Of a stretch of 23,971 bases of DNA, positions 1,529 through 22,359 are shown piece by piece. The stretch spans positions 1 through 23,971 of the forward strand of contig JANNVX010000104.1 of NCBI GenBank assembly GCA_031414595.1, in the 5' to 3' direction. The notes beneath the pieces were generated by a model. It had not been told where the DNA came from. It worked only from the letters and a program-made list of their open reading frames with translations, and ran no database searches. How positions within the stretch are numbered: the stretch's first letter is position 1; each line of letters opens with the position of its first letter. Position numbers and translations under genes: made by a program. This DNA comes from Deinococcales bacterium. Its GTDB lineage: Bacteria; Deinococcota; Deinococci; Deinococcales; JAAFIG01.

Positions 1529-1830
1529 GGCATTTTGCGGCTGCGGATTTCTGGGCGTGTTACGATAAATTACCCGAAGAAATTCAAGCGCTTGCTGATA
1601 AGAATTTTGCGTTGCTTAAAGAAAATCCGAGTCATCCATCGCTGCATTTCAAAAAAGTGGGTGCTTACTGGTCGGCGCGAGTAGCCCGATAGGTGCTGTC
1701 TTACGAGCAAGAAGCTCGAATTGGTAGGAATCAGCGGGCGGTTGCCATTGAAGTTAAATTGGGTTACTTGTGGTTCTGGATTGGTTTGCACGACGAGTAT
1801 GAAAGAATTATCAGGCAAGGTGGGGATTAA
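1525..1830 (+). pseudogene. RelE/ParE-like toxin interrupted by a 39-bp in-frame insertion carrying TAG
   Basis: Hand translation: MRHFAAADFWACYDKLPEEIQALADKNFALLKENPSHPSLHFKKVGAYWS[ARVAR*VLSYEQE]ARIGRNQRAVAIEVKLGYLWFWIGLHDEYERII. Motifs HPSLHFKKVG and WFWIGxHxEY are present. Absent from the ORF track because of TAG at 1690-1692. Confidence 0.88.
1675..1713 (+). mobile_element. Mini hairpin insertion element, copy 1 (39 bp)
   Basis: GCG-CGAGTA-GCCCGATAGGTGC-TGTCT-TACGAG-CAAGA-A. Removing it restores the toxin reading W-S-A-R-I-G. Confidence 0.75.
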
Positions 1831-1831
1831 A

Positions 1832-1873
1832 TTCTTGGGCCTCACGCCTAAGCCGTGGCTGTTTGCGTTTGCT
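1832..1873 (+). repeat. Degenerate copy C of the 515/1246 repeat
   Basis: TTCTTGGGCCTCACGCCTAAGCCGTGGCTGTTTGCGTTTGCT, beginning 2 nt after the toxin stop. Confidence 0.7.
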
Positions 1874-1939
1874 GCCACTCACCATGATTTCTATGGCTTG
1901 GAGTTATGTTCCTAGCTTAACTCTTGGTATACTCGAGAG

Positions 1940-3520
1940 GTGCAGCGACTCGAGGTTCATAATTTGGCTTTAATAGATTCACTCGAACTCGAGTTGAACA
2001 ATGGTCTAAACGTTTTTACTGGCGAAACTGGGGCGGGCAAAAGCATTATTGTGGATGCAATTTGGCTTTTAACCGGCGCTCGAGCCGATACCGAATTGGT
2101 TCGCCAAGGGGCAGAAAGTCTGGTGGTGACTGGTTTTTGGGATGGGGTGATGCTCTCTAGGCGTATCTCGAGCAGTGGACGCAGTGTGGCTCGGGTGGAT
2201 GGTGAAGTGGTCAGTAACCGAGAACTCGCCGATGCTGCCGCCAAGATGGTCACAGTCCATTGGCAACACGCGGCACAGGCACTCCTTGACCCGAAGTACC
2301 ACCGCGATTTTTTGGATGCTGCCCTTTTAGACAAAACCATGCTCGAGTCTTATAAATGGTCTTATAATCTGTTTAGCGACACCAAAACCCGCTTAGAGCG
2401 TTTACAACAATCTGAACGTGAACGCACTCGCCGTATGGATTTGTTGCAGTATCAATTGCGGGAAATCGAAGAAGCGAATCTTGGTGCAGAAGAAGAAGCC
2501 CCGCTTCGGCTCGAGCGTGAGCGTTTACTGAATGCCGAACGCATCGCCCAAGACACAGGTCATGCCCTTGAAGCCTTGGATGAAGCCGAAATCAGTGCGA
2601 CAGCGCTGCTTGGTGATGCGGTCAAATTTCTCAACAATGCTGGGCGTTTTGATGCTCGAGCCGCCCAGCTTGGGCTTGAATTACGCGAAGCCTTATCGAG
2701 TGTCCAAGCCATTGCTGGCGAAGTGCGCGACCTGACCGAAAGCGCAGCCGCCGACCCAGAATCTTTAGATCAAACCGAAACCCGTCTGGCGCTGCTCGAG
2801 AAACTAAAAAACAAATACGGCGCAAGCCTAGCTGATGTTCTCGGGTATGCCACAACCTTGCGCTTGGAATTATCAGAACTTGAACGGGCGGCGACCGATG
2901 CTGCCGACCTCGAGCAGCAATTGGTAGAATTAAAAGCCCGTCTCGAGCAGCACGGACAAGCCTTAAGTGCCGCCCGACAAGAAGCTGCTTTTCGGGTTGC
3001 GCCACAACTTGAAGCGGTGATCCAAAATCTTGGAATGCCCAAAGCCAGACTCGAGTTTATGCTTTTAGCAACCGAATTAAGCCCCCATGGCGCAGAAAGC
3101 ATTGAAATTCGCTTTACCGCCAATAGCGGCGAGGACTTAGGGGATTTAAGTAAAATCGCTTCTGGCGGCGAACTTAGCCGTGTGATGCTGGCACTGTCCA
3201 CCGTGCTAGGGGCAAATACGCCCACCGTGATTTTTGATGAGGTGGACGCTGGTATTGGCGGACAAGCAGCCTTGGCTGTCGCCGAGCAACTGCTGCAATT
3301 GGCAAACTCACATCAAGTGCTGGTGGTCACACACCTTGCCCAAATTGCTGCCAAAGCTGCCCATCATTATAAAGTCGAGAAATTCGAGCAGAACGGACGC
3401 ACTGTTACTCGGGTGCAACGCCTAGACCAAGAGGCTCGAGTCCGCGAACTGGCAAGGATGCTTTCTGGTACGGACTCGAGTACCGCGATTGCCCACGCTA
3501 GGGAACTTTTGGGGCAGTAA
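1940..3520 (+). CDS. recN: DNA repair protein RecN
   Basis: Walker A GETGAGKS, long coiled coil, ASGGELSR signature, IFDEVDAGIGG, VVTHLAQIAA. Extended -10 TGGTATACT 6 nt before the GTG start. Confidence 0.96.
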   Translation: MQRLEVHNLALIDSLELELNNGLNVFTGETGAGKSIIVDAIWLLTGARADTELVRQGAESLVVTGFWDGVMLSRRISSSGRSVARVDGEVVSNRELADAAAKMVTVHWQHAAQALLDPKYHRDFLDAALLDKTMLESYKWSYNLFSDTKTRLERLQQSERERTRRMDLLQYQLREIEEANLGAEEEAPLRLERERLLNAERIAQDTGHALEALDEAEISATALLGDAVKFLNNAGRFDARAAQLGLELREALSSVQAIAGEVRDLTESAAADPESLDQTETRLALLEKLKNKYGASLADVLGYATTLRLELSELERAATDAADLEQQLVELKARLEQHGQALSAARQEAAFRVAPQLEAVIQNLGMPKARLEFMLLATELSPHGAESIEIRFTANSGEDLGDLSKIASGGELSRVMLALSTVLGANTPTVIFDEVDAGIGGQAALAVAEQLLQLANSHQVLVVTHLAQIAAKAAHHYKVEKFEQNGRTVTRVQRLDQEARVRELARMLSGTDSSTAIAHARELLGQ

Positions 3521-3658
3521 GGGGACTCGAGACTCCCGCGCTTGTGTGCTATGCTGCCACTCGGGTGCGAAATTCTCGCGCCAATTTTCTTGTGCTTAAC
3601 GTTTTTAATGTTTGGTACATTGCGAGCGAAATCTTCGCCGCTTTTTTTTGAGGTTGTC

Positions 3659-5446
3659 ATGCAGGAATTCCGTAACATCGCCATTATCGCCCACGTAGAC
3701 CACGGCAAAACAACGCTGGTGGATGGGTTACTTAAACAAACGCATACTTTCCGTGATAATCAAATGGTTCAAGATCGGGTCATGGATTCTAACGCCTTAG
3801 AACGCGAACGCGGCATCACGATTTTGGCTAAAAACACGGCAGTTGAATACCACGGTATTAAAATCAACATCATGGACACCCCCGGTCACGCCGATTTCGG
3901 TGGCGAAGTCGAACGGGTGCTTGGTATGGTAGACGGCTGTTTGCTGCTCGTAGATGCTTCCGAAGGTCCGATGCCGCAGACTCGCTTTGTGCTTAAAAAA
4001 GCCCTCGAGTTGGGACTGCACCCAATTGTGGTGATTAACAAAATAGACCGCAAAGACCAACGCATCACCGAAGTGGTCAATTTAACTTTTGATTTGATGG
4101 CAAGTTTAGATGCCACCGACGAACAACTGGACTTTCCGATTATTTACGCCATTGCGCGTGAAGGCAAAGCCTTTAAGGACTTAGAAGCTCCTAAAGAAGA
4201 CTTAGATGAACTGCTCGAGTTAATCGTTAAGCACGTTCCACCACCGAGTATCGAAATAGATAAGCCGTTTCAGATGCTGGTCACCAACCTTGATTATTCC
4301 GATTACCTTGGGCGTATCGCCATTGGTCGGGTACGTCGTGGCAAAGTTAAACGCAACGAATACGTGATGGTCATGCACAAGGATGGTACACAAAGTAAAG
4401 CCAAAGTTAGTCAGGTCTTTACCCACATGGGTTTAGCCCGTATAGATGTCGAGCAAGTCTTTGCTGGCGATGTGGTGGCAATTGCGGGTTTAGAAGATGT
4501 TGGTGTCGGCGAGACAATTGCTGATTTTGCTGACCCGGAAGCCTTGCCCGTGCTAACTGTAGATGAACCGACGGTCTCGATGACTTTTGGACCAAATACC
4601 AGTCCATTTGCCGGTAAAGAAGGCAAGTATGTGACCACGCGACATATCCGAGACCGCTTATTCAAAGAAGCCATGACCAATGTGGCACTGCGGGTCGAAG
4701 AGGACAGCACCGACGAATATAAAGTCTCTGGGCGCGGCGAATTGCACCTGTCAATCCTAATCGAAACCATGCGCCGTGAAGGGTACGAAATGCAGGTTTC
4801 TACGCCGCAAGTCATCACCCGTGAAATGGATGGCGTAACCCACGAACCGTATGAACATTTAGTGATCGATGTACCCGAAGGCAAAATGGGCGGCGTGATG
4901 GAAACCCTCGGCTCGAGACGCGGCGAAATGCTGAACATGGACAACCAAAACGGACGAATGCGGCTCGAGTATAAAATTCCAGCCCGCAGTTTATTTGGTT
5001 TCCGCACCCAATTTCTGAGCATGACCCAAGGTGAAGGCATTATGAACCACGTTTTTGATGGCTACGCGCCAATTGCGGGTGAAATCAAAACCCGTCAGAA
5101 CGGCTCGATGGTCGCTATGGAAGCGGGTCAGACCTTTCCATACGCCATTTGGAAACTCGAGGATCGTGGTAAGTTCTTTATTGAACCGGGTATCGAAGTC
5201 TACATTGGTATGATTGTCGGTTCTAACAGCGGACCAAAAGACTTAAACATCAATGTCTGCAAATCCAAAAAATTAACCAACATGCGAACCAGTGGCGCAG
5301 ATGATGCGACCACCCTCACACCGGTTTCGCCCATGAGTCTCGAAGAAGCCCTCGAGTACATTGGTGACGATGAACTGGTAGAAGTCACCCCAAAGAGTAT
5401 TCGACTTCGCAAACGAATTCTCGAGCCGAACCAACGCAAGAGTTAA
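3659..5446 (+). CDS. typA: Translational GTPase TypA/BipA
   Basis: [41 protein letters not shown]-terminal KLTNMR and [11 protein letters not shown]. Start set at ATG3659 after a GAGG SD rather than the ORF-track TTG3542. Confidence 0.97.
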
Positions 5447-5448
5447 AG

Positions 5449-5481
5449 AAAAAGAGCGAACCAATTGGTTCGCTCTTTTTT
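5449..5481. terminator. Intrinsic terminator after typA, possibly bidirectional
   Basis: Perfect palindrome AAAAAGAGCGAACCAATTGGTTCGCTCTTTTT with A and T tails. Confidence 0.85.
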
Positions 5482-5546
5482 AAGTCAAAAACAGGGCGAC
5501 TTCAAAGGTCGCAACCAAGTTATTGCCACAGTGCTAGACTTTACAG

Positions 5547-6689
5547 ATGCGAACCCGTGCCGATTTAGAACAGATCGAAAGTCTAAGCCTCGCGCCTTAT
5601 GCGGTGCAGGCGGCGCAGTCCAAGGGCAGGCTGTACCTCGAGTCCGAAAGCGCTTTTCGCACTGCCTTCCAAAAAGACCGTGACCGTGTGCTGCACACCA
5701 GTGCTTTTCGGCGGCTCGAGTATAAAACCCAAGTTTTTACCAACACCCAAGGCGATTATTACCGCACCCGTTTAACCCACACGCTCGAGGTGGCACAGGT
5801 CGGGCGCACCATTGCTCGCTCGCTTGGGGTCAACGAGGATTTAACCGAAACGATTGCTTTAAGCCATGACCTTGGGCATCCGCCATTTGGTCATGCTGGC
5901 GAGAAAATACTGGATAACTTACTCGAGGCGCATGGTGGTTTTGATCACAACAAGCAATCTTTGCGGGTTGTGACCAAACTCGAGAAGCGTTATGAAAATT
6001 GGGACGGGCTTAATTTGGCGTGGGAAACGTTAGAAGGAATTGTCAAACACGAATCCGAGTACGATGTTGCTGATGCTAGAGACTTTGAACCGACTTGGCG
6101 GGCTTCGCTCGAGGCACAGATTGCCAATCTAGCTGATGAGACCGCTTATAATGCCCATGATTTAGACGATGGTTTACGCTCTGGGTTACTCGAGGCTCGG
6201 CAACTGGTGGAGGTGAACATTTGGCAGCGTTTTACGACAGAACTTGGTTTTAATCCCGAGTACCTGACAGAGTTTGAACGACGCGTACTGATTCGGGAAA
6301 TGCTGGGCTGGGTGATTACCGATATTGTGCAGACCAGCAGCCATAATCTCGAGGGCATTGGTTTACTCGAGGATGTTCGGGCAGCGAGTCAACCCCTGAT
6401 TGCCCATAGTTTAGAAGCTCGAGAAATGCTGCGCCAACTCAAAGCCTTTTTGTACCAGAATTTTTACTACCATCACCGTGTCATGCGTCAAGTTCATAAA
6501 GCCGAGCATATCCTGACCAGTCTGTATAAGGCATTCACCAGCCGCCCAAAGATGATGCCCAATAACCATCAAGCCAGAACAGAAAAAGTCGGTTTAGAAC
6601 GAGCCGTCTGTGATTATTTGGCGGGCATGACCGACCGTTTTGCGATGGATGAATTTAACAAACTCTTTGAACCTTACGAAAGGACATAA
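5547..6689 (+). CDS. dgt: Deoxyguanosinetriphosphate triphosphohydrolase (HD-domain dNTPase)
   Basis: RDRVLHTSAFRRLEYKTQVF, RTRLTHTLEVAQ, SHDLGHPPFGHAGE, DYLAGMTDRFA. TGCTAGACT 6 nt upstream of the ATG. Confidence 0.93.
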   Translation: MRTRADLEQIESLSLAPYAVQAAQSKGRLYLESESAFRTAFQKDRDRVLHTSAFRRLEYKTQVFTNTQGDYYRTRLTHTLEVAQVGRTIARSLGVNEDLTETIALSHDLGHPPFGHAGEKILDNLLEAHGGFDHNKQSLRVVTKLEKRYENWDGLNLAWETLEGIVKHESEYDVADARDFEPTWRASLEAQIANLADETAYNAHDLDDGLRSGLLEARQLVEVNIWQRFTTELGFNPEYLTEFERRVLIREMLGWVITDIVQTSSHNLEGIGLLEDVRAASQPLIAHSLEAREMLRQLKAFLYQNFYYHHRVMRQVHKAEHILTSLYKAFTSRPKMMPNNHQARTEKVGLERAVCDYLAGMTDRFAMDEFNKLFEPYERT

Positions 6690-6690
6690 C

Positions 6691-7290
6691 ATGCACAAAG
6701 GTCGTTTAGAAGCGTTTTCCGACGGGGTTTTTGCGATTATCATCACGATTATGGTTCTCGAGTTAAAAGTGCCTCATGAAGCCAGTTTTGCAGCCCTGCT
6801 CGAGTTGTTGCCAGTCTTTTTAAGTTATGTGCTGAGTTTTATGTTCATCGGAATTTACTGGAATAATCATCATCATTTGTTGCAAGTCACCAAAATCGTT
6901 AATGCCAGTGTGATGTGGGCAAATCTGCATTTGCTTTTTTGGTTGTCCTTAATTCCGTTTACTACAGGTTGGATGGGCGAGAATGACTTTGCCACCTTAC
7001 CAACGGCGCTATACGGCGGCGCACTGATTATGGCTGGAATTGCCTACACGATTTTGCAGACGATGATTTTGCGGCTTCATGGCACAGATTCGGTACTGGC
7101 ACAAGTCATTGGAGCAGATTTTAAGGGCAAGGTCTCGGTCTTGATTTACTTTCTAGCGATTGTTGTGGCTTTTTGGTTGCCTTGGCTGGCTGGCTTGATG
7201 TATTTGGCAGTGGCATTCCTCTGGTTTATTCCAGACCGTCGGCTCGAAAAAGCACTGGAAGCCCAGAATCAAGGCTCACTTCAAAAATAA
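6691..7290 (+). CDS. TMEM175-family potassium channel (DUF1211)
   Basis: Signature RLEAFSDGVFAIIITIMVL, YWNNHHH, about 6 TM helices. Start set at ATG6691 after AAAGGA, 1 nt past the dgt stop. Confidence 0.9.
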   Translation: MHKGRLEAFSDGVFAIIITIMVLELKVPHEASFAALLELLPVFLSYVLSFMFIGIYWNNHHHLLQVTKIVNASVMWANLHLLFWLSLIPFTTGWMGENDFATLPTALYGGALIMAGIAYTILQTMILRLHGTDSVLAQVIGADFKGKVSVLIYFLAIVVAFWLPWLAGLMYLAVAFLWFIPDRRLEKALEAQNQGSLQK

Positions 7291-8034
7291 AACTGTTCCG
7301 ACAAAAGTCATCACCCCACCAAGAAGCGGTTTGGAGTAGCGTTCTGGGAATTTTTTTGAGACTCCAGCAAAAATCCAGGCACTGGGCAATGCTCCAAGTA
7401 GAACCCAACCAACCACAGCAAAGTCTATGGCGCTGCGCTGAGCGTGTCCGAGCGATGCCACCAAAGAAATAATCACACCATGCGCCACATCTGTTCCAGC
7501 GAATCTCGAGCCAGTCAGGGCTGGGCGGATAAAGGTTAGGGCAAGCGCTAACATTGCGCCACTGCCAACACTGGTTAAGCCGACCAGAACCCCAACAAGA
7601 GCGCCAATAATCGGCAGTGGAATGCGTTGCCAGAATGGTTTTGATGTAACTATTGGCTCGAGACTGGCTGGTTTCTGGCTTAGGCGGCGTTGGCGCTCTA
7701 AGATACTCAGACCCGTCAGAACAAGCGCAACTGCCAGTAATTTAAGTAAAAATTCTATTTTGACATGGGCAAGACTGGCTAAATAACCGGCTGGGATGCT
7801 GCCAATCGCAAGTTGAAAAACAATTTTCCAGTCTATGTTTTCTTCACGGTGGTGTCGCCAACCCGCGCCAATTTTGGTGATGCTGGCAATCAGTAAATCC
7901 GTGCCAATTAGCACAGGAGTCGGTAAACCCAAAAACAGCAACGCAGGGGTCAATAAACTTCCGCCCCCCAATCCAGTCGTGGCAATCAGTCCACCAGTCA
8001 CAGCCCCAAGTAACACCAGAACAATTGGGTTCAT
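7276..8034 (-). CDS. TauE/SafE (TSUP) family sulfur-compound transporter
   Basis: [31 protein letters not shown] motifs; multi-TM; last gene of the cys operon with an ATGA overlap. Confidence 0.88.
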
Positions 8035-9161
8035 GGATTCTCCGCATAGGCGGCGCGTAATACCTCGGCAACCTCGGGTCTCGAGAATTCGGCGGGCAGT
8101 GGTTCGCCAGCCGCTAAAAGTTCACGTACTTTTGTGCCACTTAACACCAGATGCTCGCCTTTGTCGTGTGGGCAGGTGCGGCTCGAGACGACTGCGCCGC
8201 ATTTTTTGCAGTAGAACGTATGCTCGAACTTGATGATTTCAATGCCAATTTCCTCAGGGCTAAACTGGTTAAAGATTTCTTGGGCATCGTAAGTGCCGTA
8301 ATATGTGCCAACCCCAGCATGGTCGCGTCCGACAATAAAATGGGTGCAACCATAGTTTTTGCGGCTGATGGCGTGCAGTACCGCTTCTCGAGGACCCGCA
8401 TAGCGCATTGCGGCGGGGTACACGCCTAATAAAACACGGTTGCTAGGATAATAGTTCTCCAGCAGCACTTCATAAGCACTCATGCGGGTGGTGACTGGCA
8501 CATCATCGGATTTGGTTTCACCAACCAATGGATTTAAGAATAAGCCGTCTATGGTCTCGAGCGCGACTTTATGCAGGTACTCATGGGCGCGGTGGACTGG
8601 GTTGCGGGTTTGGAATGCCACGATTGTTTTCCAATTCTTCTTGGCAAACAAAACTCGAGTCTCGAGTGGGGTGAAGTGATGCGTGGCAAATTGACCGCGT
8701 GGGACTTCAAAAAGCCAGATTTCACCAGCTAAGTTAATTGGGGCTTGTGCCAGTAATGCCGCCACTCCGGGGTGATTTGGGTCGGTGGTGCGGTAGACCG
8801 CTTGACTTTCGGCTTGGCGGTCTGGGGTGTAACTTTCCGAGACCTCGAGAATCCCGACTGCTAGACCATTTTTAGTGAGTTTTACCCGTCCAGATAAGGC
8901 TTCTTCGACCCCTAAAGTAATCGGGATGCTCCAAGGTAAACCATTCTCGAGACGCATTTGGCTAACAATTCGGGCATGGTCTTGACTGCCCACAAAGCCA
9001 GTCAGTGGCGAATAAACACCTGTGGCAATACACTCGAGGTCGGCATAACTGCGTTCGTTTAGCTCTAAGCTGGGTAAGGCTTCAAGTTCGGTGGGGCTTA
9101 ATCCCAATTCCACAAGACTGCGTACTCGATTGACCAATGTTCCACCGTGGGCTGTATTCAT
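8031..9161 (-). CDS. sat: Sulfate adenylyltransferase (ATP sulfurylase)
   Basis: [40 protein letters not shown], CxxC...CPH zinc site. Confidence 0.96.
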
Positions 9162-9796
9162 AATCCGCCTCTATTCCATAAACCACATTCGGTTTTTTCT
9201 GTGCCAGCCCAACGTCCGGCTCGAGCATCCTCATTATTTTCTACGGCTCGGGTGCATGGCACACAGCCAATGCTGCTGTAACCTTGCCAATACAACGGAT
9301 TGACAGGTAATTCGTGTTGCACGGCGTATTCCTCGAGTTCGGCTCGAGTCCAGAACGCCAATGGGTTATAGGTGATGCGCTCGGGGGTTTCTTCGCGCAG
9401 TTCAATGCTGGCTCGAGTGCTGCTTTGTTCACGGCTACGGGCATTCAGTAAAGCACTGGGTTTGTGCTGCTCGAGATAGTTTTTGAGCGGCGCAACTTTT
9501 CGGGCGGCACAGCAAGCCGTGGTATCGGTCTTAAACAGGTCGTCAAGCGGCAACCCTGCACTTAAGGTTATAAATTTTACGTCTGGATAGCGTTTTTCTA
9601 AGACATCTCGAGTGGCGATGGTTTCTGGGAAATGATAATCGGTGTCTACAAAAACCACTTGCCCGTTAAATCCAGCCTGTACCGCCAAGTCGAGCAGCAC
9701 TGTGCCATTTAAGTTAAAAGCACTGGTCATCAGGGTGTCTTGGTGCAGCTCTAGGGCGGAGCTTAGAAACTCGAGGGTATCGGCTTTATGGCTCAT
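9158..9796 (-). CDS. cysH: APS/PAPS reductase (Fe-S type)
   Basis: [37 protein letters not shown]. Confidence 0.92.
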
Positions 9797-10311
9797 AGTT
9801 TCTCTAAAATGGCTTGGAGGCTCTGTTCTAAACTGAATACATCGGTTCGTAAATGCAAATCTGGCTCGAGTGGGGCTTCGTAGGGGTCAGAGACTCCTGT
9901 AAAATGCAAAATTTCACCAGCCAGTGCTTTTTTGTATAAGCCTTTGGTATCCCGTGTTGTCACCACTTCAAGCGGTGCGTCCACAAAAATCTCGAGTGCT
10001 TTGACCCCATTTTTTTGTGCCTCGAGTAAGACTTCGCGCCGAGCATCGCGGTACGGGCTGATGGCACTGACCAAAACAGTTACGCCGTGTTTAGCCAGTA
10101 AATTTGCCACAAAGCCGATTCGTTTAATGTTGGTGTCGCGGTCTTCTTTACTAAAGCCTAAGCCTTTAGAAAGGGTTTCGCGTACCGCGTCGCCATCTAA
10201 AATTTCGACGCGGTGACCAAGGGCGCTTAGGCGTGGTGCGAGGGCTTGGGTGATGGTGGTTTTACCAGCGCCGGATAAGCCGGTCAGCCAGATAAGTGTT
10301 CCGTTTGACAT
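9793..10311 (-). CDS. cysC: Adenylyl-sulfate kinase
   Basis: [49 protein letters not shown]. Start set at ATG10311 after a GGAG SD. Confidence 0.95.
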
Positions 10312-10333
10312 AAATAACTCCAAGGTGAATGAG

Positions 10334-10591: not shown

Positions 10592-10627
10592 ACATGTTGA
10601 TACCTCAACTTAAATTTACTTTTTTAC

Positions 10628-14210: not shown

Positions 14211-14346
14211 AAGTAGCTCCTTTGAATCTTACTCGAGTATAAACCCGATACCACTATATTAAATGTTTTGCGTGACTTGAACGTGACAAGCAAAATGCCA
14301 CTTGATTTCCAGATATACCGCGAAAAGCTAAAGCATCCGCAAAAGT

Positions 14347-14396
14347 TTCAGGTAATACCCGATATGCCTTCCAAAAATCTTTGGTTGTATCTCCAA
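14347..14396 (-). pseudogene. N-terminal remnant of a ParE-like toxin
   Basis: Just after the 14398 stop the minus strand reads TTKDFWKAYRVLPE, resembling the start of the 1525-type toxin. It is out of frame with the TTG at 14396 and similarity ends after ~14 codons. Confidence 0.55.
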
Positions 14397-14397
14397 G

Positions 14398-14607
14398 TCA
14401 TTCGCACTCTATAGGTAGTGTCGTCCCTGCACGTCGTTCAGCCCTGACTTTTTCCGACATTGCCAGTAAAAATGATTCAGAACGCGCAAACGAAGCCTGC
14501 CATTTTGCCTCTTCGATTTCCTCGAGTAAGCGCAGTGCAATTTCATGCTGTTGGGCTTCGGGAAGTGTTTGCAGTGAGTCAAAGGCTTGTTGCAAAACTT
14601 GGGTCAT
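14398..14607 (-). CDS. Putative antitoxin, now orphaned
   Basis: 69 aa (LPEAQQHEIA...EEAKWQASFARS), a type usually upstream of ParE-like toxins. TGCTAGACT 6 nt upstream of the ATG. Confidence 0.72.
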   Translation of the reverse strand: MTQVLQQAFDSLQTLPEAQQHEIALRLLEEIEEAKWQASFARSESFLLAMSEKVRAERRAGTTLPIECE

Positions 14608-14648
14608 AAAAAAAGTCTAGCACAGTTACTAGAAACGTTCTAAGAAGG

Positions 14649-14863
14649 TAGAGCCTCCAAAAGGTCTGAAATTTTTAGGAATTTTTGTCAAATGCGTGAA
14701 TGGAAAAACAGGGCGAACACGGGGGTTCGCCCCTACCTCACACATCTTTACGCCATTAGCGTAGGGACAGGCGACCATGCCCGTCAGGTGCGCGTTTATG
14801 GTCAAGACACCCCTGTGTCTGTCCTGTAACTAACGATGAAATGGCATTCTTTCAGAGGCTCTA
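14649..14863. mobile_element. 215-bp MITE with a 9-bp target-site duplication
   Basis: TIRs TAGAGCCTCCAAAAG and CTTTCAGAGGCTCTA (13/15 match), flanked by direct repeat CTAAGAAGG (14640-14648, 14864-14872). Contains an inverted REP pair. Confidence 0.85.
14771..14808 (+). mobile_element. Mini hairpin insertion element, copy 2 (38 bp), inside a REP
   Basis: GCG-ACCAT-GCCCGTCAGGTGC-GCGTTT-ATGGT-CAAGA-C. Removal restores the REP GTAGGGACAGACCCCTGTGTCTGTCCTG. Confidence 0.8.
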
Positions 14864-14947
14864 CTAAGAAGGCTTCGATGGTCTTGCGGTTTTGGCTGTT
14901 CAGTCCAAAAACACTGTACACAAGGTCGTTGAGCTTACCCTTGAGTT

Positions 14948-17900
14948 TTATTGTTTATACAACCCCGCCACCAAAGCGTCTATCTCGAGCCGAAGCGCCT
15001 TAAACTGCTCGAGTTTTTGCACCACCACTTGTTCTTGGGTTTCCAGTGCATCCAATGCCGCCACCGCATCGGCGGGGGTGCTTGGTAGCTCGAGTCCACG
15101 GGCTTCAAGGCTGGCAACCGTATCCGAGCCGCAGAGCTTAAATTGTCGCTCGAGCCAAAGCAAGGCGCGTTCTGGGGTTTCGGGCGCAAACTCGAGAACA
15201 ATATCGTTGCGTCCACGAATTAAAGTCTGTCCACGCACTCGAGCATCGGATACAGTTGCACCAGAATCCAGTATTTGCATTCCCCAAAGCATTTTGGCTC
15301 GAGCCAGTGGCACTTTTTGAATACCGAGTGGCAAATGTGCGGGTGCATGACAAGTACCCTGTACGGTGCGAATCACCCAACCCAAGCGCCGTAATCCAAA
15401 GAACTCGAGTCCTAGGGAATTGAGTTTTTGTACCAGTGCAATAATCGGTTTTTGTTGCTCGAGGCTAATGTCTGGAATGGGAATGGGTTTGTAGTCGTCT
15501 GGGTAAAGATTTGTACGGTCACGACGATTGGCTTTTAGATAATCAGAAATGTAGCTTGAATTGAGAATGCCTTGTAAGAATTCTAGGCTAAAATTTACGG
15601 AACGCTGCTCGAGAATACCTCTATCCTGCTTATTCACAGAATCATTGATAGGGCGATTCTCGACACCTTTTAGGGCAATCCACGGCACAAGATGATGGAT
15701 ACTGTGATTGGTGTATAGCCAGCCTAATTCTTGATTTCCTTTGTCTAAAACAGCGTTGGCTTGGTTTGCGTCATTGCTCGAGACGACCATCGAAACCCCA
15801 ATTTTTTGGTTCTTAAACAATTCTGGAAACCTTGCACGACGAATTCTTTCTGGCGCACGCAAACCAGAGCCATACTCGAGAAAACGCATTGAAATAAGCT
15901 CAAAAGGTTGTACGTCACTGGCTTCAATATAGGCGGCGGGATGTTGATTATCTTTTTCTAGCGAAACTAAATCATCTTTTTTGAACTCGTTTGGAAATTT
16001 GATTTCATGAGACTGCAACTCCATTCCAGCACTGATAAAACATATCTCCTCGAGCCTGTGCATTCCTTTTAATTTTTCTTGGGCTTTACTCTGCCGCCAG
16101 ACTTGAATACCTATTTCGCTTTGCTTGGCGGTTTCTTCTTTGCTTAAAACACTTTCTAGGCTTTTGGCATCGGCGGCGGGTTGGGTAAACCAACGGCGTA
16201 GGGTTTTGGCTTTGGGGCTTGGAGGGGTGTTCTGGACAAAAAAGATGGTGTTTTCGACCACCGCATCTTCAAATAATTTGACCCCCGGAAAAAATGCCAG
16301 TTGCTTAATTTGGGTTTTGGCGGTTAGCAATTGGCGGATACTTTCGGTGTACGGCACAGTTTCGATAGCATTTGAGGTAATCATTCCCATTGTGCCGTTT
16401 TTGGCTAACAATTGCCAGCCAAGGGCAATAAATGGCACAAATAAATCCCATTTTTTCTGGCAAGCCTCACGCAAGGCACTGATGGGATGTTCTTCTTTAA
16501 TTTGACGGCGGTATTCTTTTAAGCCCTCACCACCTTCGTCGGCTCGAACATAGGGCGGGTTTGCCACCACATAATCAAAACTGGTTTGCAGTGCCAGTTT
16601 TATTTGTTCGGCTTCGGGCATTCCGCGTAAATCGAGGGCTTCGGCTGTAGGGTTTATCTGCTCGAGTTGGGCGATTTGGGCGGCGTTAGCTTCTGGCTTT
16701 AAGGTGTCGGTGTTAAAAATCTTAAAACGCTCGAGATGAATTTCTTGCCCTGCGTCCAAAGCGGTTTTTATTGGGTCTAGTACCTGAATTAACAAATTGG
16801 TTTCGGCTAAATAACAAGCAAATGGGTTTAAGTCTAAACCGTAGACACCTTGCTGCACCGTCTCGAGTACCAAATTGACTTCTTGGGCTGGAATCTTGCC
16901 CTTGTGGTGTTTTTTGAATGCCCCAACAATGCGGTTGGCGGCTTTGACCAAAAATGTTCCACTGCCACAAGCGGGGTCTATAATCCGTTTGCCTTGGACG
17001 GCATCTAAGCCTTGGTAGCCAACTTGGTCTAGGATATAATCCACAATCACTGGTGGGGTGTAATACATGCCGCTTTCGTGCTTGTGTTTATCTTCGACAT
17101 AGCGGCTGTACAAATGCCCAATCACATCTTGGTCTATCTGCGCTAAATCGAACTGGGCAAAACGGTGCAGTATCCGAATCACCAAATTGCGGTCTGGGGT
17201 GTACCAGTCGTAGAGCAAGCGTTCGCTGTAAAAATGACGGTAAATATGTTGTGCGCCACTGTACGCCATCTCGAGCAGAAAATAAGTGCTTTTGCCTTGG
17301 GCATGGCGTAAATAATACGGCTCGATGGTTTCAAACCAGTGCGCCACACCGCCGTTGGTAAAAATTCTGGGGATAAGGGCTTTATCTTCTAAAATCCGTA
17401 CCAGCAGCATTCGCACCACCAGCACATAAGCAGTTTGGGCGCTAAATTCGCGTTGCAAACGGGTTGGGTCGTTGGTTTTAAGAATAATCGTGGCAACTTT
17501 TGCCACCCAAGCGCTGTAGGATTCGCGCACTTCTATCGCGTCGCGGTATTGGCGCATCAGGTCGTCGCGGTGATTGTGATAACTGCTAATCAGGTGTTGT
17601 AAACGGCTGATTTGTCGCCGCATTTCGGTGCTGATGGTTTGTTGTGGCGCAGCTTTTTTAGTCACTGGAATCTCGAGCAAGCTGCCTTGGGCTTCGGGGA
17701 TAAGGGCATCAAAAACATTTTCTTGGGTTTGGTCTGGCTTGGCTTTCTTGATTTTTTTGGCTTCTATTGGCGTAGCACTGGCTAAGGCTTGTTTGGCTTG
17801 TCGCTCGAGTTTATCAATTAAGTCGCGCTCGGTAAAACGCTCGAGTTGACCTTCCAAAAAATACTTGGTCGCCAGCCAAATATCGCTAATTCCCGCTTTG

Positions 17901-18766
17901 CTGTATTCGGAACTCAATGCCTCCATGCTCTGCAAAATCAGGTCTCGAGCATTGCTGTTTGGTTCGCTTGGCAGCCGTTCTAGGGCAGTTTGGTATTCTT
18001 CAAATTCACGTAAGCGCAGCCGCAACTGAGCGCCGACATCAAATTCGATTTCTTGAATCACAGCACGGGTTTGTTCGATTAAACGTTGCAAAAAATCGGG
18101 GTTGCTGCTCTTAAACTCTGGGTTAAACGTGCTGCCGTCGAGCGCATGAAGTACGCCAGCCTCGGTATGGGTCAGTTCATGAACCAATTTGCCAGCCCCT
18201 GCATAAGACTGCCTCGAGAAACGGTTATAAAAGGCGGCTAAGGCGCTGATGTCTTGGTCGTCTAAGCCAGCCAAGCCGCTTAAACCGTTGCTGTATAAGT
18301 TGCCCTCGGTTCGCCACCGCGCCACCAACTCGAGCAAATCTAGGTCAGCAATTAAAGCTGGTACGGGGTCACGCAGTTCGTATGCCAGCAAGCGCTTGCC
18401 ATTGCATAGTAGTCCTCGTGGCGCACCGTTTGAGCGCATATAGCCCTCGAGTTGCGCCAAGGCTTCACGCTCGAGTGCCAGAATGCCCGATTTTTTATCT
18501 TCGATGATAAAACACGGCTTTGGATAAGTGCTTAAATGCACCAGAAAATCTGGGCGGCGCTTACCAACCGCGTTATCGTAATCGTATTCGGAATCGGTGT
18601 AGCCAAGGGCTTTAATTAAAAGCTGCGAGACCCGTAAGTCGACAATGTTTTTTTCATCGCCGCCATGGTCGGTTTGACTAAAATACTGGGTAAAGGTTTG
18701 GGCATTGTAAAAATCATCTCGAGCCAAATGACCAATAAACTCAGCAATAAATGTTTCGGCGGACAT
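14948..18766 (-). CDS. Fused type IIG-like restriction-modification enzyme (PD-(D/E)xK nuclease, N6-adenine MTase, TRD)
   Basis: N-terminal RRPDF...IIEDKK...QLEGY; MTase motifs GMYYTP, IIDPACGSGTF and VVANPPY; TaqI_C-like region ending GILNS. Extended -10 TGGTAACTT 5 nt upstream of the ATG. Confidence 0.85.
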   Translation of the reverse strand: MSAETFIAEFIGHLARDDFYNAQTFTQYFSQTDHGGDEKNIVDLRVSQLLIKALGYTDSEYDYDNAVGKRRPDFLVHLSTYPKPCFIIEDKKSGILALEREALAQLEGYMRSNGAPRGLLCNGKRLLAYELRDPVPALIADLDLLELVARWRTEGNLYSNGLSGLAGLDDQDISALAAFYNRFSRQSYAGAGKLVHELTHTEAGVLHALDGSTFNPEFKSSNPDFLQRLIEQTRAVIQEIEFDVGAQLRLRLREFEEYQTALERLPSEPNSNARDLILQSMEALSSEYSKAGISDIWLATKYFLEGQLERFTERDLIDKLERQAKQALASATPIEAKKIKKAKPDQTQENVFDALIPEAQGSLLEIPVTKKAAPQQTISTEMRRQISRLQHLISSYHNHRDDLMRQYRDAIEVRESYSAWVAKVATIILKTNDPTRLQREFSAQTAYVLVVRMLLVRILEDKALIPRIFTNGGVAHWFETIEPYYLRHAQGKSTYFLLEMAYSGAQHIYRHFYSERLLYDWYTPDRNLVIRILHRFAQFDLAQIDQDVIGHLYSRYVEDKHKHESGMYYTPPVIVDYILDQVGYQGLDAVQGKRIIDPACGSGTFLVKAANRIVGAFKKHHKGKIPAQEVNLVLETVQQGVYGLDLNPFACYLAETNLLIQVLDPIKTALDAGQEIHLERFKIFNTDTLKPEANAAQIAQLEQINPTAEALDLRGMPEAEQIKLALQTSFDYVVANPPYVRADEGGEGLKEYRRQIKEEHPISALREACQKKWDLFVPFIALGWQLLAKNGTMGMITSNAIETVPYTESIRQLLTAKTQIKQLAFFPGVKLFEDAVVENTIFFVQNTPPSPKAKTLRRWFTQPAADAKSLESVLSKEETAKQSEIGIQVWRQSKAQEKLKGMHRLEEICFISAGMELQSHEIKFPNEFKKDDLVSLEKDNQHPAAYIEASDVQPFELISMRFLEYGSGLRAPERIRRARFPELFKNQKIGVSMVVSSNDANQANAVLDKGNQELGWLYTNHSIHHLVPWIALKGVENRPINDSVNKQDRGILEQRSVNFSLEFLQGILNSSYISDYLKANRRDRTNLYPDDYKPIPIPDISLEQQKPIIALVQKLNSLGLEFFGLRRLGWVIRTVQGTCHAPAHLPLGIQKVPLARAKMLWGMQILDSGATVSDARVRGQTLIRGRNDIVLEFAPETPERALLWLERQFKLCGSDTVASLEARGLELPSTPADAVAALDALETQEQVVVQKLEQFKALRLEIDALVAGLYKQ

Positions 18767-18823
18767 GGTTTAAGTTACCATGTTGTAAAGTAAAGGATAA
18801 GGACAGGACGGTCACAAGGGTCG

Positions 18824-19193
18824 CCCATAAGCATCAGGTTAAGAGCAAAAGCCTTTCAGTACGCATAGAATCACAATCAGTCAGCCCCTCACCCGACTCG
18901 CTTGAAGCTCGTCACCCTCCCCCAAAACACGCTTCGCTGGGGGAGGGTTAGTGAGTAGTGTTGACTTCTGTTAAACTTGAAAAACGTGCTAAAAACTGTG
19001 TTTTTTAGGTTTCTAGCCCTCAATTTGAACAACAAACCAAACCGAACAACCCTCTCCCGCGCTTTTTGGCGGGATGAGGGTAACGAGCCTAAGCGAGTTG
19101 GGTGAGGGTTGGAGCGCGGTATGGACAATTCATTGTATGTAATAGGTTTTTATTGTTCTGCACTATAAATTTCCTTAAACTGATGCTTATGGG
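18824..19193. mobile_element. MITE-like element carrying an internal inverted pair of CCCTCACCC-type palindromic repeats
   Basis: 20-bp inverted ends CCCATAAGCATCAGGTTAAG and CTTAAACTGATGCTTATGGG (1 mismatch). Internal inverted units at 18886-18948 and 19049-19108. No TSD resolved. Confidence 0.65.
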
Positions 19194-19199
19194 AGGGTC

Positions 19200-19238
19200 T
19201 TCTTGACCCTAAAGAAGCACCTTTCGGGCTTGGGTCGC
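19200..19238 (-). mobile_element. Mini hairpin insertion element, copy 3 (39 bp, minus strand)
   Basis: Reverse complement GCG-ACCCAA-GCCCGAAAGGTGC-TTCT-TTAGGGT-CAAGA-A, inserted in the loop of hairpin GGGAGGGT...ACCCTCCC. Confidence 0.8.
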
Positions 19239-19328
19239 TTGTACCCTCCCCGTTTCAATGTATTAGGCGAAATTTTTGCATTGAGTTTCGCAAATAACTT
19301 TAACTACAACTGACGTTAAAATAAAGCA

Positions 19329-20048
19329 GTGAAGCAACTCCATTTACAATCAGTAAACTACGAACCCCAGCCTTGGCTCGAGACGCACCCGTACAACATT
19401 CCAGCCGTGCAGCAAATACGAGACAACGGCTTAAAGTTTTCTAATCCAATCACTTTTTTTGTCGGTGAGAACGGCTCTGGTAAAACCACCGTACTCGAGA
19501 GTATTGCTGTGCGCTACAAACGCATTGGCGCAGCTACACCGTATTTGCGGCGTACAGGCACAGAACTTTCACTCGAGGATGCGCCCTTGGGTTGGAATGC
19601 GGTGCTGGGAACACCTTTAAGTGCATCACCCGAAGGATTTTTTCTTCGTGCCAGTACCTTGTCGGATTTAATCTCAGACCTTGAATCCACTCGAGCCAGA
19701 CGCTTTGAACGTGGGTACAGTTCTCGTTCGCACGGTGAGCGGTTACTGCATATCCTCAACGAACACTTTGACTCGAGCGGATTTTACTTGCTGGACGAAC
19801 CCGAAACGGCGTTATCGTTTCAATCGCAACTTGGTTTACTGGCATTACTACACAATTTGGCATCTCGTGGGGCGCAAGTGATTTGTGCCACGCACTCGCC
19901 GATATTACTTTCTTTACCGAATACCAGTATTCTCGAGTTTGGAGCTTGGGGTATTCGCCAGAGTACAGCCGACGATCTCGAGTTACTGCGTGATTGGAAA
20001 GGTTTTTTGAATGCGCCCGAGCGTTGGTTACGGAATTTACTCGAGTAG
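19329..20048 (+). CDS. Predicted ABC-fold ATPase (AAA_21/COG3910-like)
   Basis: VGENGSGKTT, SHGE signature, LLDEPETALS, CATHSP. TAAAAT 6 nt upstream of the GTG start. Confidence 0.85.
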   Translation: MKQLHLQSVNYEPQPWLETHPYNIPAVQQIRDNGLKFSNPITFFVGENGSGKTTVLESIAVRYKRIGAATPYLRRTGTELSLEDAPLGWNAVLGTPLSASPEGFFLRASTLSDLISDLESTRARRFERGYSSRSHGERLLHILNEHFDSSGFYLLDEPETALSFQSQLGLLALLHNLASRGAQVICATHSPILLSLPNTSILEFGAWGIRQSTADDLELLRDWKGFLNAPERWLRNLLE

Positions 20049-20057
20049 AATGGTTAT

Positions 20058-20249
20058 TTAATCACCAGACATTAGAGAAGTGTGATGCGAACTGACTGCA
20101 TAAATAGCTGGACGATAACGCGGTTCAGGAATTTTTAGCCCCAATTCTTCAGCAGCCTCGAGCCAAAGATTTTTAGCAATCTCGAGTTCATACAGTGCCT
20201 CGGCTGGGGATTCCCCAAATGCTGAATTTTCCACACATACCGAATACAA
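20058..20249 (-). pseudogene. hicB: 5'-truncated HicB-like antitoxin
   Basis: SAFGESPAEALYELEIAKNLWLEAAEELGLKIPEPRYRPAIY matches the C-terminal part of short HicB proteins. The usual N-terminal strands are missing and no hicA is adjacent. Confidence 0.65.
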
Positions 20250-20279
20250 CCGTTGGAGGACAACATAACAAGCATAATT

Positions 20280-20335
20280 CTCGAGCCAACAAGATTTTAG
20301 GCAGTGGCTCGAGGCAGATAAAAGCGATGGGCTTA
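20280..20335 (+). repeat. CTCGAG-bounded repeat upstream of higBA
   Basis: CTCGAGCCAACAAGATTTTAGGCAGTGGCTCGAG resembles 21340-21372; its tail resembles 22132-22165. Confidence 0.6.
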
Positions 20336-20396
20336 AGTCTGTGTAGTAGAAATGTCACACATTAAATTACTTATAGGTGATATATTTGAGGTGTGA

Positions 20397-20810
20397 ATGA
20401 ATGAGATTTGGGAAATAAGTTTTTTTGAGGATGAAAAAGGGAATGTACCTGTACGAGATTATCTCATGGCGCTCAAAACTGGTGAACAAAAACGCTTTTT
20501 AACACGCCTGATTCCACTCCAAGAAAAAGGTTTAGCCGCAGGGCGACCATACAGCGACAAACTCGAAGATAATCTGTACGAACTCAGGCTCGAGAATTCA
20601 CCACATAATCCACGTTTTCTGTATTGCACTGCGATTGGTCGGGTTTTACATTTACTGCACGGGTTTTCCAAAACAGGCAAAAACTCAGACCTTGTTCCAG
20701 AATCCGAAAAAATCATTGCCAGACGAAGACGTGACCAATTATTCAAACATCTTCAAGCACAACAAGCAGCTATAGAACAGCCACAAAAACAAGCCAAGAA
20801 AAAAAGGTGA
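20397..20810 (+). CDS. higB: Gp49/HigB-type RelE-superfamily toxin
   Basis: FFEDEKGNVPVRDYL, GRPYSDKLEDNLYELR, RFLY, LLHGFSK. Toxin-first order upstream of an HTH gene. Confidence 0.82.
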   Translation: MNEIWEISFFEDEKGNVPVRDYLMALKTGEQKRFLTRLIPLQEKGLAAGRPYSDKLEDNLYELRLENSPHNPRFLYCTAIGRVLHLLHGFSKTGKNSDLVPESEKIIARRRRDQLFKHLQAQQAAIEQPQKQAKKKR

Positions 20811-20814
20811 GAAC

Positions 20815-21333
20815 ATGAAACCAAAAAAACCATCTCCAATTGGAGCAAATACACTGAACGCGATTGAATGGTTGAATAGTATTTTGCCAGATACCCCAGA
20901 AATGCGAGCCATTGAAGAAGAAGAATGGACAAAATATAACCTCGCTATTGCTTTAATTGAGGCTCGAGAAGCGGCAGGACACACCCAAAGCACTCTGGCA
21001 GCCGAACTTGGTGTGCAACAAAGTCTGATTTCAAAATGGGAAAAAGTCCACCATAACCACACCCTCGAGACGCTGCTGCAACTTTGCAACGCCACAGGCG
21101 CAAAATTGGTCATGGGACTCGAGATAAACGACGAGCTGCACGCGATTACGCCAGCCGCCAAGCGCTGCGTTTTACTTTCAGAAACTGCTCAGCAAAAGCT
21201 CGAGGCAAAAGCTAAAAGCACGGGATTAACACCAAGGGAGACACTGCTTGCGCCATTGGTGGAGAAAGAAAAACCACCAGCCAAACACCGCGTCTCGAGC
21301 AGCCAATCAAGACTTGAAGCGCAAAGCAGATAG
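20815..21333 (+). CDS. higA: XRE/HTH antitoxin (HigA-like) with a C-terminal extension
   Basis: LIEAREAAGHTQSTLAAELGVQQSLISKWE...TLETLLQLCNATG; starts 4 nt after the toxin stop. Confidence 0.8.
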   Translation: MKPKKPSPIGANTLNAIEWLNSILPDTPEMRAIEEEEWTKYNLAIALIEAREAAGHTQSTLAAELGVQQSLISKWEKVHHNHTLETLLQLCNATGAKLVMGLEINDELHAITPAAKRCVLLSETAQQKLEAKAKSTGLTPRETLLAPLVEKEKPPAKHRVSSSQSRLEAQSR

Positions 21334-21372
21334 CCACGGCTCGAGCCTTAAGATTTCAGGCAGAGGCTCGAG
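21331..21372 (+). repeat. CTCGAG-bounded repeat downstream of higBA
   Basis: TAGCCACGGCTCGAGCCTTAAGATTTCAGGCAGAGGCTCGAG; shares AGCCACGGCTCGAG with 22126-22139. Confidence 0.6.
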
Positions 21373-21403
21373 AAAGGTGATAAACAAGTTATAATCCCAA
21401 ACA

Positions 21404-21928
21404 ATGACAATTGGAGAAGTCGAACAATGGCATCATTTTGTGTATAACGGCATAACTTATGACCTATCCCATTTGAACGCCAGCAAAGTTGTGTACACCA
21501 ATCCAAAAACCGAAACGCAATACGAATTTATAGTTACATACAGCTTTCATTGCTTTGCCAAAGACGATAATGCACTTTCGGCTGCGGAACATTCAGCACT
21601 CCTGTACATTGCACCTCGAGACTCGCGCCCATTTCATTTTGAGCGTTACGAAGACTCAAAACAGCTTCCTGAAATTATTAGGAAGCTGCACCAAGCCTAT
21701 ATTTTCGATGCTGGTTATGATGGTTGTGCAACAGTTCAGATTCTTAACGAAGCAGGTATTTTGGTGCATTACAAAATAATTTTTAAGGCATTTCGAGAGA
21801 AGAAAAAGTTTCGCCTTCACATCTCGAGCGCTCATCGGCTTACCGTGGTTGGCAAGACCAAGCGAATCAACTTTTTTACCATTGCCGAGAGTTTAGTCAA
21901 AAACAAACCATTGCCACGAAACCCATAA
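21404..21928 (+). CDS. Uncharacterised 174-aa protein, resembling the 'heat shock protein C / stationary phase growth adaptation protein' family
   Basis: Motifs YDLSHL, VTYSFHCFA, RPFHFERYEDSKQLP, LHISSAH, recognised from memory only. TATAAT at 21390-21395, 8 nt before the ATG. Confidence 0.7.
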   Translation: MTIGEVEQWHHFVYNGITYDLSHLNASKVVYTNPKTETQYEFIVTYSFHCFAKDDNALSAAEHSALLYIAPRDSRPFHFERYEDSKQLPEIIRKLHQAYIFDAGYDGCATVQILNEAGILVHYKIIFKAFREKKKFRLHISSAHRLTVVGKTKRINFFTIAESLVKNKPLPRNP

Positions 21929-22063
21929 ATAACAAAGGCTCTCTGAAGAGAGCCTTCGCCAAGGGGTTGCCTTGGTATTCGGAAAGTGTCTTTACCGGAC
22001 AAGCCTCGACCTTTGCAGGTAACGTGATGTCATGTACTTGTGGCACATGTCCGCCGCATCAAC
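21929..22063 (-). ncRNA. Candidate ~135-nt structured RNA convergent on the 21404 gene
   Basis: Own promoter, five consecutive hairpins, a terminator with a U-rich tail on the minus strand, and no plausible ORF. Confidence 0.6.
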
Positions 22064-22069
22064 AAGAAA

Positions 22070-22098
22070 AGAGTAGCGAAATTAAAAGTTTTTGTCAA
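22070..22098 (-). promoter_or_regulatory. sigma70 promoter for the candidate ncRNA
   Basis: TTGACA (22098-22093), 17 bp, TACTCT (22075-22070). Confidence 0.65.
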
Positions 22099-22119
22099 GT
22101 TTTTTGTGCCTCGCGCCGA

Positions 22120-22170
22120 GCAAACAGCCACGGCTCGAGGCACAAAATAAAGCAATGGCTCGAGGCACAC
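22120..22170 (-). repeat. Inverted relative of the 515/1246/1832 repeat, with tandem GGCTCGAGGCAC units
   Basis: GCAAACAGCCACGGCT is the reverse complement of AGCCGTGGCTGTTTGC in copy C. Confidence 0.6.
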
Positions 22171-22207
22171 CGCAGCCTTTAGGAATGCAACCAAAATGCG
22201 GGAATGG

Positions 22208-22359
22208 CAGGACAGACACGGGCGACCATGCCCGCAGGTGCGTGTTTAGCGACCCAAGCCCGCAGGTGCTGCTGTAGGGGTCAAGATTGGTCAAGAAGGG
22301 TCTGTCCCTCCAGGGTATGGAAATACGTCAGGTAGGGCGCGACCCTTGTGGTCGCCCTG
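22208..22359. repeat. Inverted REP doublet whose left REP carries two nested mini elements
   Basis: Left REP CAGGACAGACACGG[insert]GGGTCTGTCCCTCC; right REP GTAGGGCGCGACCCTTGTGGTCGCCCTG (22332-22359). Confidence 0.75.
22222..22297 (+). mobile_element. Mini hairpin insertion element, copies 4 and 5 (22249-22287 nested inside 22222-22297)
   Basis: Outer GCGACCATGCCCGCAGGTGCGTGTTTA|TGGTCAAGAA; inner GCGACCCAAGCCCGCAGGTGCTGCTGTAGGGGTCAAGAT. Confidence 0.8.

Follow-up and report, generated by a model that had tools for sequence, protein, structure and literature searches.

The small dispersed repeats SDR1-8 of Nostoc and relatives, attributed to Elhai et al. 2008, are reportedly only 21–27 nt long and are said to carry compensatory changes, to insert precisely, and to nest in themselves and in other repeats. 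How such small repeats move has reportedly been an open question since these cyanobacterial sequences were described. In this study, we analyzed a 23,971-nt stretch of DNA (hereafter, the window), which is one entire contig (JANNVX010000104.1) of the genome of an uncultured Deinococcales bacterium (GCA_031414595.1, designated G000; 4.49 Mb in 120 contigs), together with a small hairpin element that it holds in five copies. The element works like the Nostoc SDRs, to which it is likened by description and not by sequence. If an SDR is defined as a dispersed repeat of <100 nt whose structure is kept by compensatory change, then an element with 121 copies in one genome and a covarying stem falls within it; the element also inserts precisely, nests within its own copies as well as within other repeats, and has filled and empty sites. 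It differs from the SDRs in its length (36–40 nt), its phylum, its loops, which favor DNA, its genome-specific cut register, and its being a target of an IS110 insertion sequence (IS). SDR5 was inserted precisely inside HIP1 (PMC4390886), whereas the element has no HIP1-like octamer target. A literature search at title and abstract level, in which subscription journals were thinly covered, found no published description of the element.

Repetitive extragenic palindromes (REPs) and REPINs resemble the element in being short, imperfect, bulged hairpins that are non-autonomous and have many extragenic copies, with CT as the commonest junction on one strand (PMC3479197, PMC3116915, and PMC6006769). 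The element differs in lacking a GTAG-type foot (its own foot reads GC or, on the opposite strand, TCTT), in being a single hairpin with exact ends rather than a doublet, in inserting into REPs, and in departing from strict C|T cleavage. The IS200/IS605 family and its derivatives share the single-strand logic, the bulged hairpin, and the absence of target duplication (PMC6006769 and PMC3479197), whereas the element consists of one hairpin instead of two ends and has no conserved 4–5 base target read by a guide. It also has neither the terminal inverted repeats shared with an IS nor the fixed duplication of a classical miniature inverted-repeat transposable element.

On balance, we lean towards a gene-less mobile element that moves as folded single-stranded DNA by means of an enzyme acting in trans and cutting 5' of a G. 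The enzyme would read the hairpin shape, cut a single strand just 5' of G at both element ends and in the target, and then rejoin the strands; the new copy would be fixed by replication of the opposite strand, and the one-base variation of the tail would come from the 3' cut shifting to the next G. Sequence comparison demonstrates the extent of the unit, how it folds, that it inserts precisely, that it prefers a weak (A)(R)|G target at the loop-to-stem edge, and that its register is genome-specific; we infer the intermediates and the chemistry. The initial annotation had postulated a minimal non-autonomous element moved in trans, and that view is supported.

Copies, empty sites and nesting

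The element follows the plan GC-arm-GCCC-G(N1-2)A-GGTGC-bulge-arm'-AAGA with a unit length of 36–41 nt. Its 5' end is GC without exception. After AAGA comes either a single base, mostly A in G000 and C in the sister lineage, or the same base plus A; the originally described CAAGA-N tail is therefore correct in part, as CAAGA-N-A occurs too. A genome scan, which had been named as a check, raised the number of copies in G000 to 121, of which 108 were found directly and 13 were revealed by removing a nested copy, compared with 0, 1, and 0 occurrences of the same anatomy in three shuffled genomes.

Exact 20-base empty alleles are present elsewhere in G000 for 60 of the 121 copies and represent 42 distinct sites (the verified sites below), and joins of 14–20 bases give an empty allele for 91/121 copies. 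By rule, 87 distinct target sites were called in G000. The proposal that clean removal restores the empty site is thus borne out, and so, in its main part, is the absence of duplication: no fixed length is duplicated, as element and target do not overlap at 6 of the verified sites, can be shifted by 1–2 bases at 25, and overlap by more at 11 (0–2 bases at 31/42). The 1–2 base shift, which qualifies the earlier statement, arises because element and target both tend to begin with G or GC. At 12/42 verified sites, the target base differs and the element nevertheless keeps its own first G, which argues for exchange of one strand.

All five copies in the window were confirmed at their original positions, and a relaxed scan found no further true copy there. 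Copy 1 (1675..1713, plus strand, 39 nt, GATA loop) is a precise 39-bp insert in a small toxin-antitoxin toxin gene (1525..1830, plus strand), where it sits at a codon boundary and adds an in-frame stop. Exactly these bases are missing from the orthologues in the relatives G005 and G007, so the empty orthologous sites that had been named as a test exist to the base. The intact G005 orthologue gave a weak ParE_like match (E 0.0013, under the Pfam cut-off). Copy 2 (14771..14808, plus strand, 38 nt, GTCA loop) lies within a GTAG-tagged palindrome belonging to a ~215 bp multi-copy element. Across G000, this site is filled 13 times, with six different element sequences, and empty 67 times, and it is likewise filled in the G005 orthologue; not every copy is therefore a separate event. 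Copy 3 (19200..19238, minus strand, 39 nt, GAAA loop) is located at the 3' loop edge of a short hairpin, and its empty allele occurs twice (18-base join); the orthologues of this site did not reach across the junction. Copy 4 (22222..22297, plus strand, GCA triloop), a 37-nt host split into 22222-22248 and 22288-22297, lies in the loop of a REP-like palindrome whose empty allele occurs six times. Copy 5 (22249..22287, plus strand, 39 nt, GCA triloop) sits inside copy 4, where its insertion point is the 3' end of the bulge.

Nesting reaches several levels, chimeric and half copies exist, and in low-copy genomes, the copies lie mostly within repeated hosts. Some of the copy number does stem from carriage within larger repeats. 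Taken further, the element might no longer be independently mobile, an old insert having spread passively by larger repeats, gene conversion, and inter-copy recombination; the 13 copies on one site of a multi-copy host, the sharing of the 14771 copy with G005, the chimeric and half copies, and the repeated hosts in low-copy genomes are all consistent with such a history. Nevertheless, the 87 distinct G000 target sites, the different variants at a single site, and the several-level nesting speak for repeated movement, and the precise single-copy insert in the toxin gene, empty in two relatives, largely refutes passive spread, which we consider highly improbable as the explanation.

Head-to-tail arrays of 2–4 copies with a period of 37–39 bases were observed in G006 (C56:44156-44302), G009 (C10, C15), and G010 (C91, C174, C229). 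In G000, 15 copies lie inside open frames of at least 200 aa (7 sense and 8 antisense), which are putative genes, and several of these are in REP palindromes. IS3-like copies at L408 and L409 (G009:C7 and C68) hold several element insertions in both orientations, and dead IS copies seem to accumulate them. Variant cores with unchanged arms and tail were also seen, either with a three-pair upper stem and a three-base loop or with a GCCCC...GGTGGC core (L339, L344, L354, L269, L297; G000), and strict patterns therefore undercount the family.

The surroundings of the copies in the window are rich in repeats. The ~215 bp element that holds copy 2 (14650-14865) is non-coding, contains two palindromes, and has many matches in G001 and G007, and a ~370 bp repeat with CCCTC...GAGGG-type palindromes (18825-19190) has 16 matches in G001 and a single match in G005. 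A toxin-antitoxin-like gene cluster (614-1830 and 20397-21333) comprises a PIN-domain gene (829-1239), the interrupted ParE-like gene, and a Gp49-like gene (20397-20810) with an HTH-like partner. Positions 14948-18766 (minus strand) encode a 1272-aa fused restriction-modification-like protein, with methyltransferase motifs as read from the sequence, flanked by two repeat-rich spacers.

Fold, target choice and cut register

Among 58 distinct G000 arm pairs, taken with no stem filter, 4.48 of 5 positions pair on average, compared with 3.14 in 2000 shuffles (maximum 3.60), which bears out the earlier report of covarying arms. A stem-filtered set of 312 distinct units (437 copies) was collected from G000, its relatives, and metagenome loci. 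In its lower stem, three positions show all four Watson-Crick pairs and a fourth shows three. Tandem G.A replaces two stem pairs in 25/312 units; copy 1 belongs to this subfamily, and its description as weakly paired was wrong. On the GC...AAGA strand, the folded layout has an unpaired 5' GC, a variable stem of 5–6 bp, a pyrimidine-rich 3' bulge, and a short upper stem with a bulged T and a GNNA or GNA loop, followed by an unpaired AAGA-N(-A) tail.

Lower-stem mispairs are G.T 19 times and A.C 5 times, in a set whose filter allows two G.T pairs and only one other mismatch, and this asymmetry points to the GC...AAGA strand as the folded strand. GNYA tetraloops exceed GNRA (38 vs 15 in G000; 118 vs 85 elsewhere), all 16 GNNA loop kinds occur, and the triloops GAA, GCA, and GTA are closed by a C-G pair without exception. 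GNA loops closed by C-G have been described as unusually stable in DNA, and the d(cGNNAg) motif is named in a title among the references of the same source (PMC3201870). Since GNYA is in excess, all GNNA kinds are present, and the GNA triloops are C-G-closed, the loops favor single-stranded DNA over RNA, short of proof because the copies are related. Together with the G.T/A.C asymmetry, the loop kinds support the single-stranded-DNA-like fold that had been suggested.

The same fold also forms as RNA, where it is more stable on the GC...AAGA strand in 254/312 units. The hairpin could thus be excised from transcripts and, after ligation or reverse splicing, return through reverse transcription, an RNA intermediate of the kind reportedly proposed for Nostoc SDRs. 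The optional terminal A could then be untemplated, and G000 does have reverse transcriptases. However, the loops show no GNRA preference; no Rfam match at gathering score was present in the window (0 matches); orientation to the transcribed strand of flanking genes is near even (33 sense and 21 antisense, p 0.13), indicating no strong link; both reverse transcriptase matches in G000 are on contigs with CRISPR-type genes, one of them beside cas1 and cas2-like genes; and the carriers G090, G120, G156, and G158 gave no RVT_1 match, a reverse transcriptase being found only in G000 among five genomes. An RNA route is accordingly improbable. The two G000 loci are a Type III CRISPR-like operon in which the reverse transcriptase gene neighbors cas1 and cas2-like genes (C82:58428-70506) and a second, broken reverse transcriptase (C69:107-538).

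The earlier statement that the targets share no sequence was too strong, as a weak motif is present. G directly follows the cut at 66/87 G000 sites and 216/268 sites outside G000, A precedes it at 58/87 G000 sites, and upstream of the cut, A is preferred at -2 and a purine at -1. The commonest cut in G000 is A|G (C|T on the other strand), with 44/87 sites; A|G makes up 100/268 sites outside G000 and 16/42 verified sites. The preference for hairpin targets holds: empty G000 sites fold at -6.7 kcal/mol, compared with -3.8 kcal/mol for random AG sites, and their bases are unpaired up to the cut and paired beyond it, placing the cut at the loop-to-stem edge, with a weaker effect in the non-G000 set. 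Many targets are GTAG REPs.

When the element inserts into itself, the cut position depends on the genome. Self-nesting occurs at A|GG 89 times in G014 and 83 times in G016, with no case at AG|GT in either, whereas G156 has 37 cases at AG|GT and none at A|GG. G157 prefers A|GG over AG|GT by 9 to 1, and G120 has real-looking nestings at AG|GT. The host core is identical across genomes of either register, and a few elements of the other arm type obeyed the register of their genome. Pairing between bulge and target was no better than with shuffled bulges within either lineage, so that no internal guide was found (of 24 tests, a single one gave p 0.016, and only with the sets pooled); nesting and the tail rule confounded an analysis of mutual information by position. 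Given a genome-specific register in an identical host core, and no sign of an internal guide, we infer that the cut position is chosen by a factor in trans.

Some observations weigh against the movement of a folded single strand by a trans-acting enzyme. The searches turned up neither such an enzyme nor an excised circle; contigs of four sequencing runs, in which such a product would not be expected to show, had no joint skipping a copy among the matches listed. The G.T count is tilted by the stem filter described above; nearest-neighbor DNA energies hardly separate the strands (-6.0 vs -5.9 kcal/mol); and the copies are related, so the loop and pair counts are non-independent events. The register difference could partly reflect lineage differences in the element itself (the tail and the pair beside the core), and no replication-strand bias was detectable (30 vs 23, with 68 unclear), the GC skew being too weak.

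Distribution and the search for the moving enzyme

The strict core is present in all 18 genomes of the uncultured Deinococcales family to which G000 belongs, with 1 to 318 copies each, and occurs 0–2 times in 22 genomes of four other families. In the sister family f3, probably the Deinococcaceae, its presence is patchy. A looser pattern, scanned over 364 genomes of the phylum and having a chance level of ~10–20 in GC-rich non-carriers, gave 163 matches in G156, 50 in G157, 50 in G120, 22 in G150, 18 in G090, and 15 in G158, all in f3. The full pattern gave 42 in G157, 36 in G120, 13 in G150, 13 in G158, and 8 in G090, and 0 in controls. The G158 copies may have arrived inside larger repeats. 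In a scan of a genome collection (at least 124 matches, 80 of them titled), the full anatomy, judged by eye, appeared among the matches listed only in Deinococcales- or Trueperaceae-titled or untitled entries, the titled carriers being uncultured Deinococcales plus one Trueperaceae. Viral copies were also sought: there were 13 pattern matches, and the 12 inspected all lacked complementary arms and were attributed to chance.

The initial annotation had pointed to an HUH/Y1 transposase (IS200/IS605 or a REP-associated tyrosine transposase, RAYT) as the mover. This is unsupported so far, as no family was found in all carriers and 26/42 verified sites deviate from strict C|T. A Y1, RAYT, or reverse transcriptase gene flanked by the motif, which had been named as a test, was not seen around the loci examined. 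IS200-type TnpA was not found in G000, G156, or G158 and is present in G090, G120, and G150.

One alternative mover is the host RAYT (TnpA-REP, Y1 HUH), which would move the element by cutting C|T on the opposite strand, with the GTAG REP as guide. G000 has two RAYT-like Y1 genes, and the RAYT query matched 63/364 genomes, including 16/18 of the family. Many targets are indeed GTAG REPs with A|G as the commonest G000 cut, and the conserved base 5' of the cut on the opposite strand is as in HUH chemistry, where RAYT requires both C and T of C|T (PMC3479197). By contrast, A|G accounts for fewer than half of the cuts at verified sites and outside G000; a GTAG foot is missing from the element; and its fold favors the other strand. 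A further 46 matched genomes are in other families, with G157 as the only carrier among them, and the query found none in the carriers G005, G090, G120, G150, G156, and G158 (84, 99, 91, 92, 58, and 95% complete, respectively). The NCBIfam RAYT model likewise found none in G005, G156, and G158, and in G090, G120, and G150 only places that the IS200 model had already matched. We therefore regard RAYT as an unlikely mover.

The two G000 RAYT loci hold REP-like palindromes and not element copies. The palindromes lie inside the reading frame of both genes (L001 1417-2121 and L367 1190-1792), and palindromes within the RAYT frame are reported for subclass 2.4 (PMC6006769).

Absence of an enzyme here means that it was not found with the queries used; some genomes are incomplete, and distant Y1 classes could escape. 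Such blanks are weak evidence because, of the two G000 RAYTs with hmmscan scores above cut-off, the genome search with Y1_Tnp recovered just one. G158 (95% complete, 5 contigs, 13–15 copies) gave no RAYT, IS200 TnpA, reverse transcriptase, or IS110 relative. No recurrent gene was found beside the copies when we compared G000 neighbors, 30 sister-family loci, loci against G000 proteins, and 35 loci, 20 of which were selected clusters; in G009, the two clusters with the highest density turned out to be IS3-like copies. When the small proteins of G000 were grouped by paralogy, no candidate emerged among the matches listed. Also rejected were four-helix-bundle proteins (2/11 carrier-side genomes vs 10/16 others) and DUF559 (22/27 genomes, both sides alike). 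We propose that the mover belongs to none of the tested families or is a relative too distant for the searches used. G000 also has a small integrated element (C58:31827-38209) with a 393-aa HUH Rep-like gene and an integrase-like gene.

IS110 in the element's loop and the meaning of the family

The sole long insert between separated element halves in G000 is a decayed IS110 of ~1.2 kb (C42:2336-3570, L366), which contains two further element copies. Its flanking half-elements derive from different contexts, and rearrangement is therefore suggested. Relatives of this IS lie at the identical base, GCCCG(N1-2)A|GGTGC, in G003, G005, G012, G014, G015, G016, G018, G156, and G157 (L369-L379, L381, L386, and L388), in varied arm variants and flanks, and more distant relatives in G150 have other targets. 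The protein domains match Pfam with E 3e-22 and 2e-18, the DEDD and Transposase_20 models both being above their cut-offs. The upstream region has a predicted two-hairpin RNA fold (z -1.6). GCACCT and GTCCG in its first loop match the element's loop on the IS strand, and its second loop carries the IS's own end, the guides having been read by eye from 11 upstream regions; this resembles the target-loop and donor-loop arrangement of the IS621 bridge RNA (PMC11208160). The IS in the loop resembles REP-targeting IS110 elements of the IS621 type in its CT core, two-loop upstream RNA, and multi-copy hairpin target (PMC11208160 and, for ISPpu10, 10.64898/2026.03.19.712850). It differs in that the target is a tiny mobile element, which has in turn entered the donor guide on at least three occasions. 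No viral relative was found.

These features raise the question of whether the IS110 moves the element as a minimal donor for its bridge-RNA recombinase. In G000 and seven family genomes, the IS lies exactly at the A|GG self-nesting site; it begins with GC and ends with A in the element orientation, with the same CT core on its own strand; and the element lies within the bridge RNA donor guide in several IS copies. However, the target guide spells only the element's loop, whereas most element insertions have just 1–2 bases in common; the G156 IS is at A|GG (three ends), while self-nesting there is at AG|GT by 37 to 0; and the query found no relative in G120 or G158, nor, with a length of 105 residues, in 11/18 family genomes. 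A role of IS110 as mover is very unlikely. The IS110 is best read as a parasite of the element, given the discordant registers in G156 and the mismatch of most element targets to the guide.

In the reverse direction, the donor guide has received the hairpin, at a single base, three times or more: in G000 and G018; in G012, G014, G015, and G016; and in G157. The long open frames and differing flanks of the IS copies with the 39-nt donor-guide hairpin (L371, L373, L375, and L376) suggest that these copies transposed after gaining it. The bridge RNA may thus tolerate a 39-nt insert in its donor guide.

On a bolder view, the element represents an undescribed cut-and-join system for single-stranded DNA, in which an enzyme family not yet recognized, or a host enzyme in a new role, would recognize a 36–40 nt hairpin by its shape and insert it ahead of a G at the edge of loops, the register depending on the enzyme variant; it might also move the Nostoc SDRs; in addition, the element and an IS110 would parasitize each other, the hairpin-programmed bridge RNA of the latter working with the hairpin in its donor guide. 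We offer this interpretation tentatively and hold it with less than even confidence. The family supplies natural variants in the hundreds, sites with and without the element, and two cut registers that occur in nature; taken together, these define an assay as well as a profile by which the enzyme could be found. A module of 38 nt that inserts without a scar at a near-free target would be a compact strand-transfer tool. In its hosts, the element breaks genes, as seen in the toxin gene of G000 and in the IS copies of its relatives, and it shows in nature how a bridge RNA can be retargeted to a landing site that itself moves, an RNA that may also tolerate 39 inserted nt in its guide loop.

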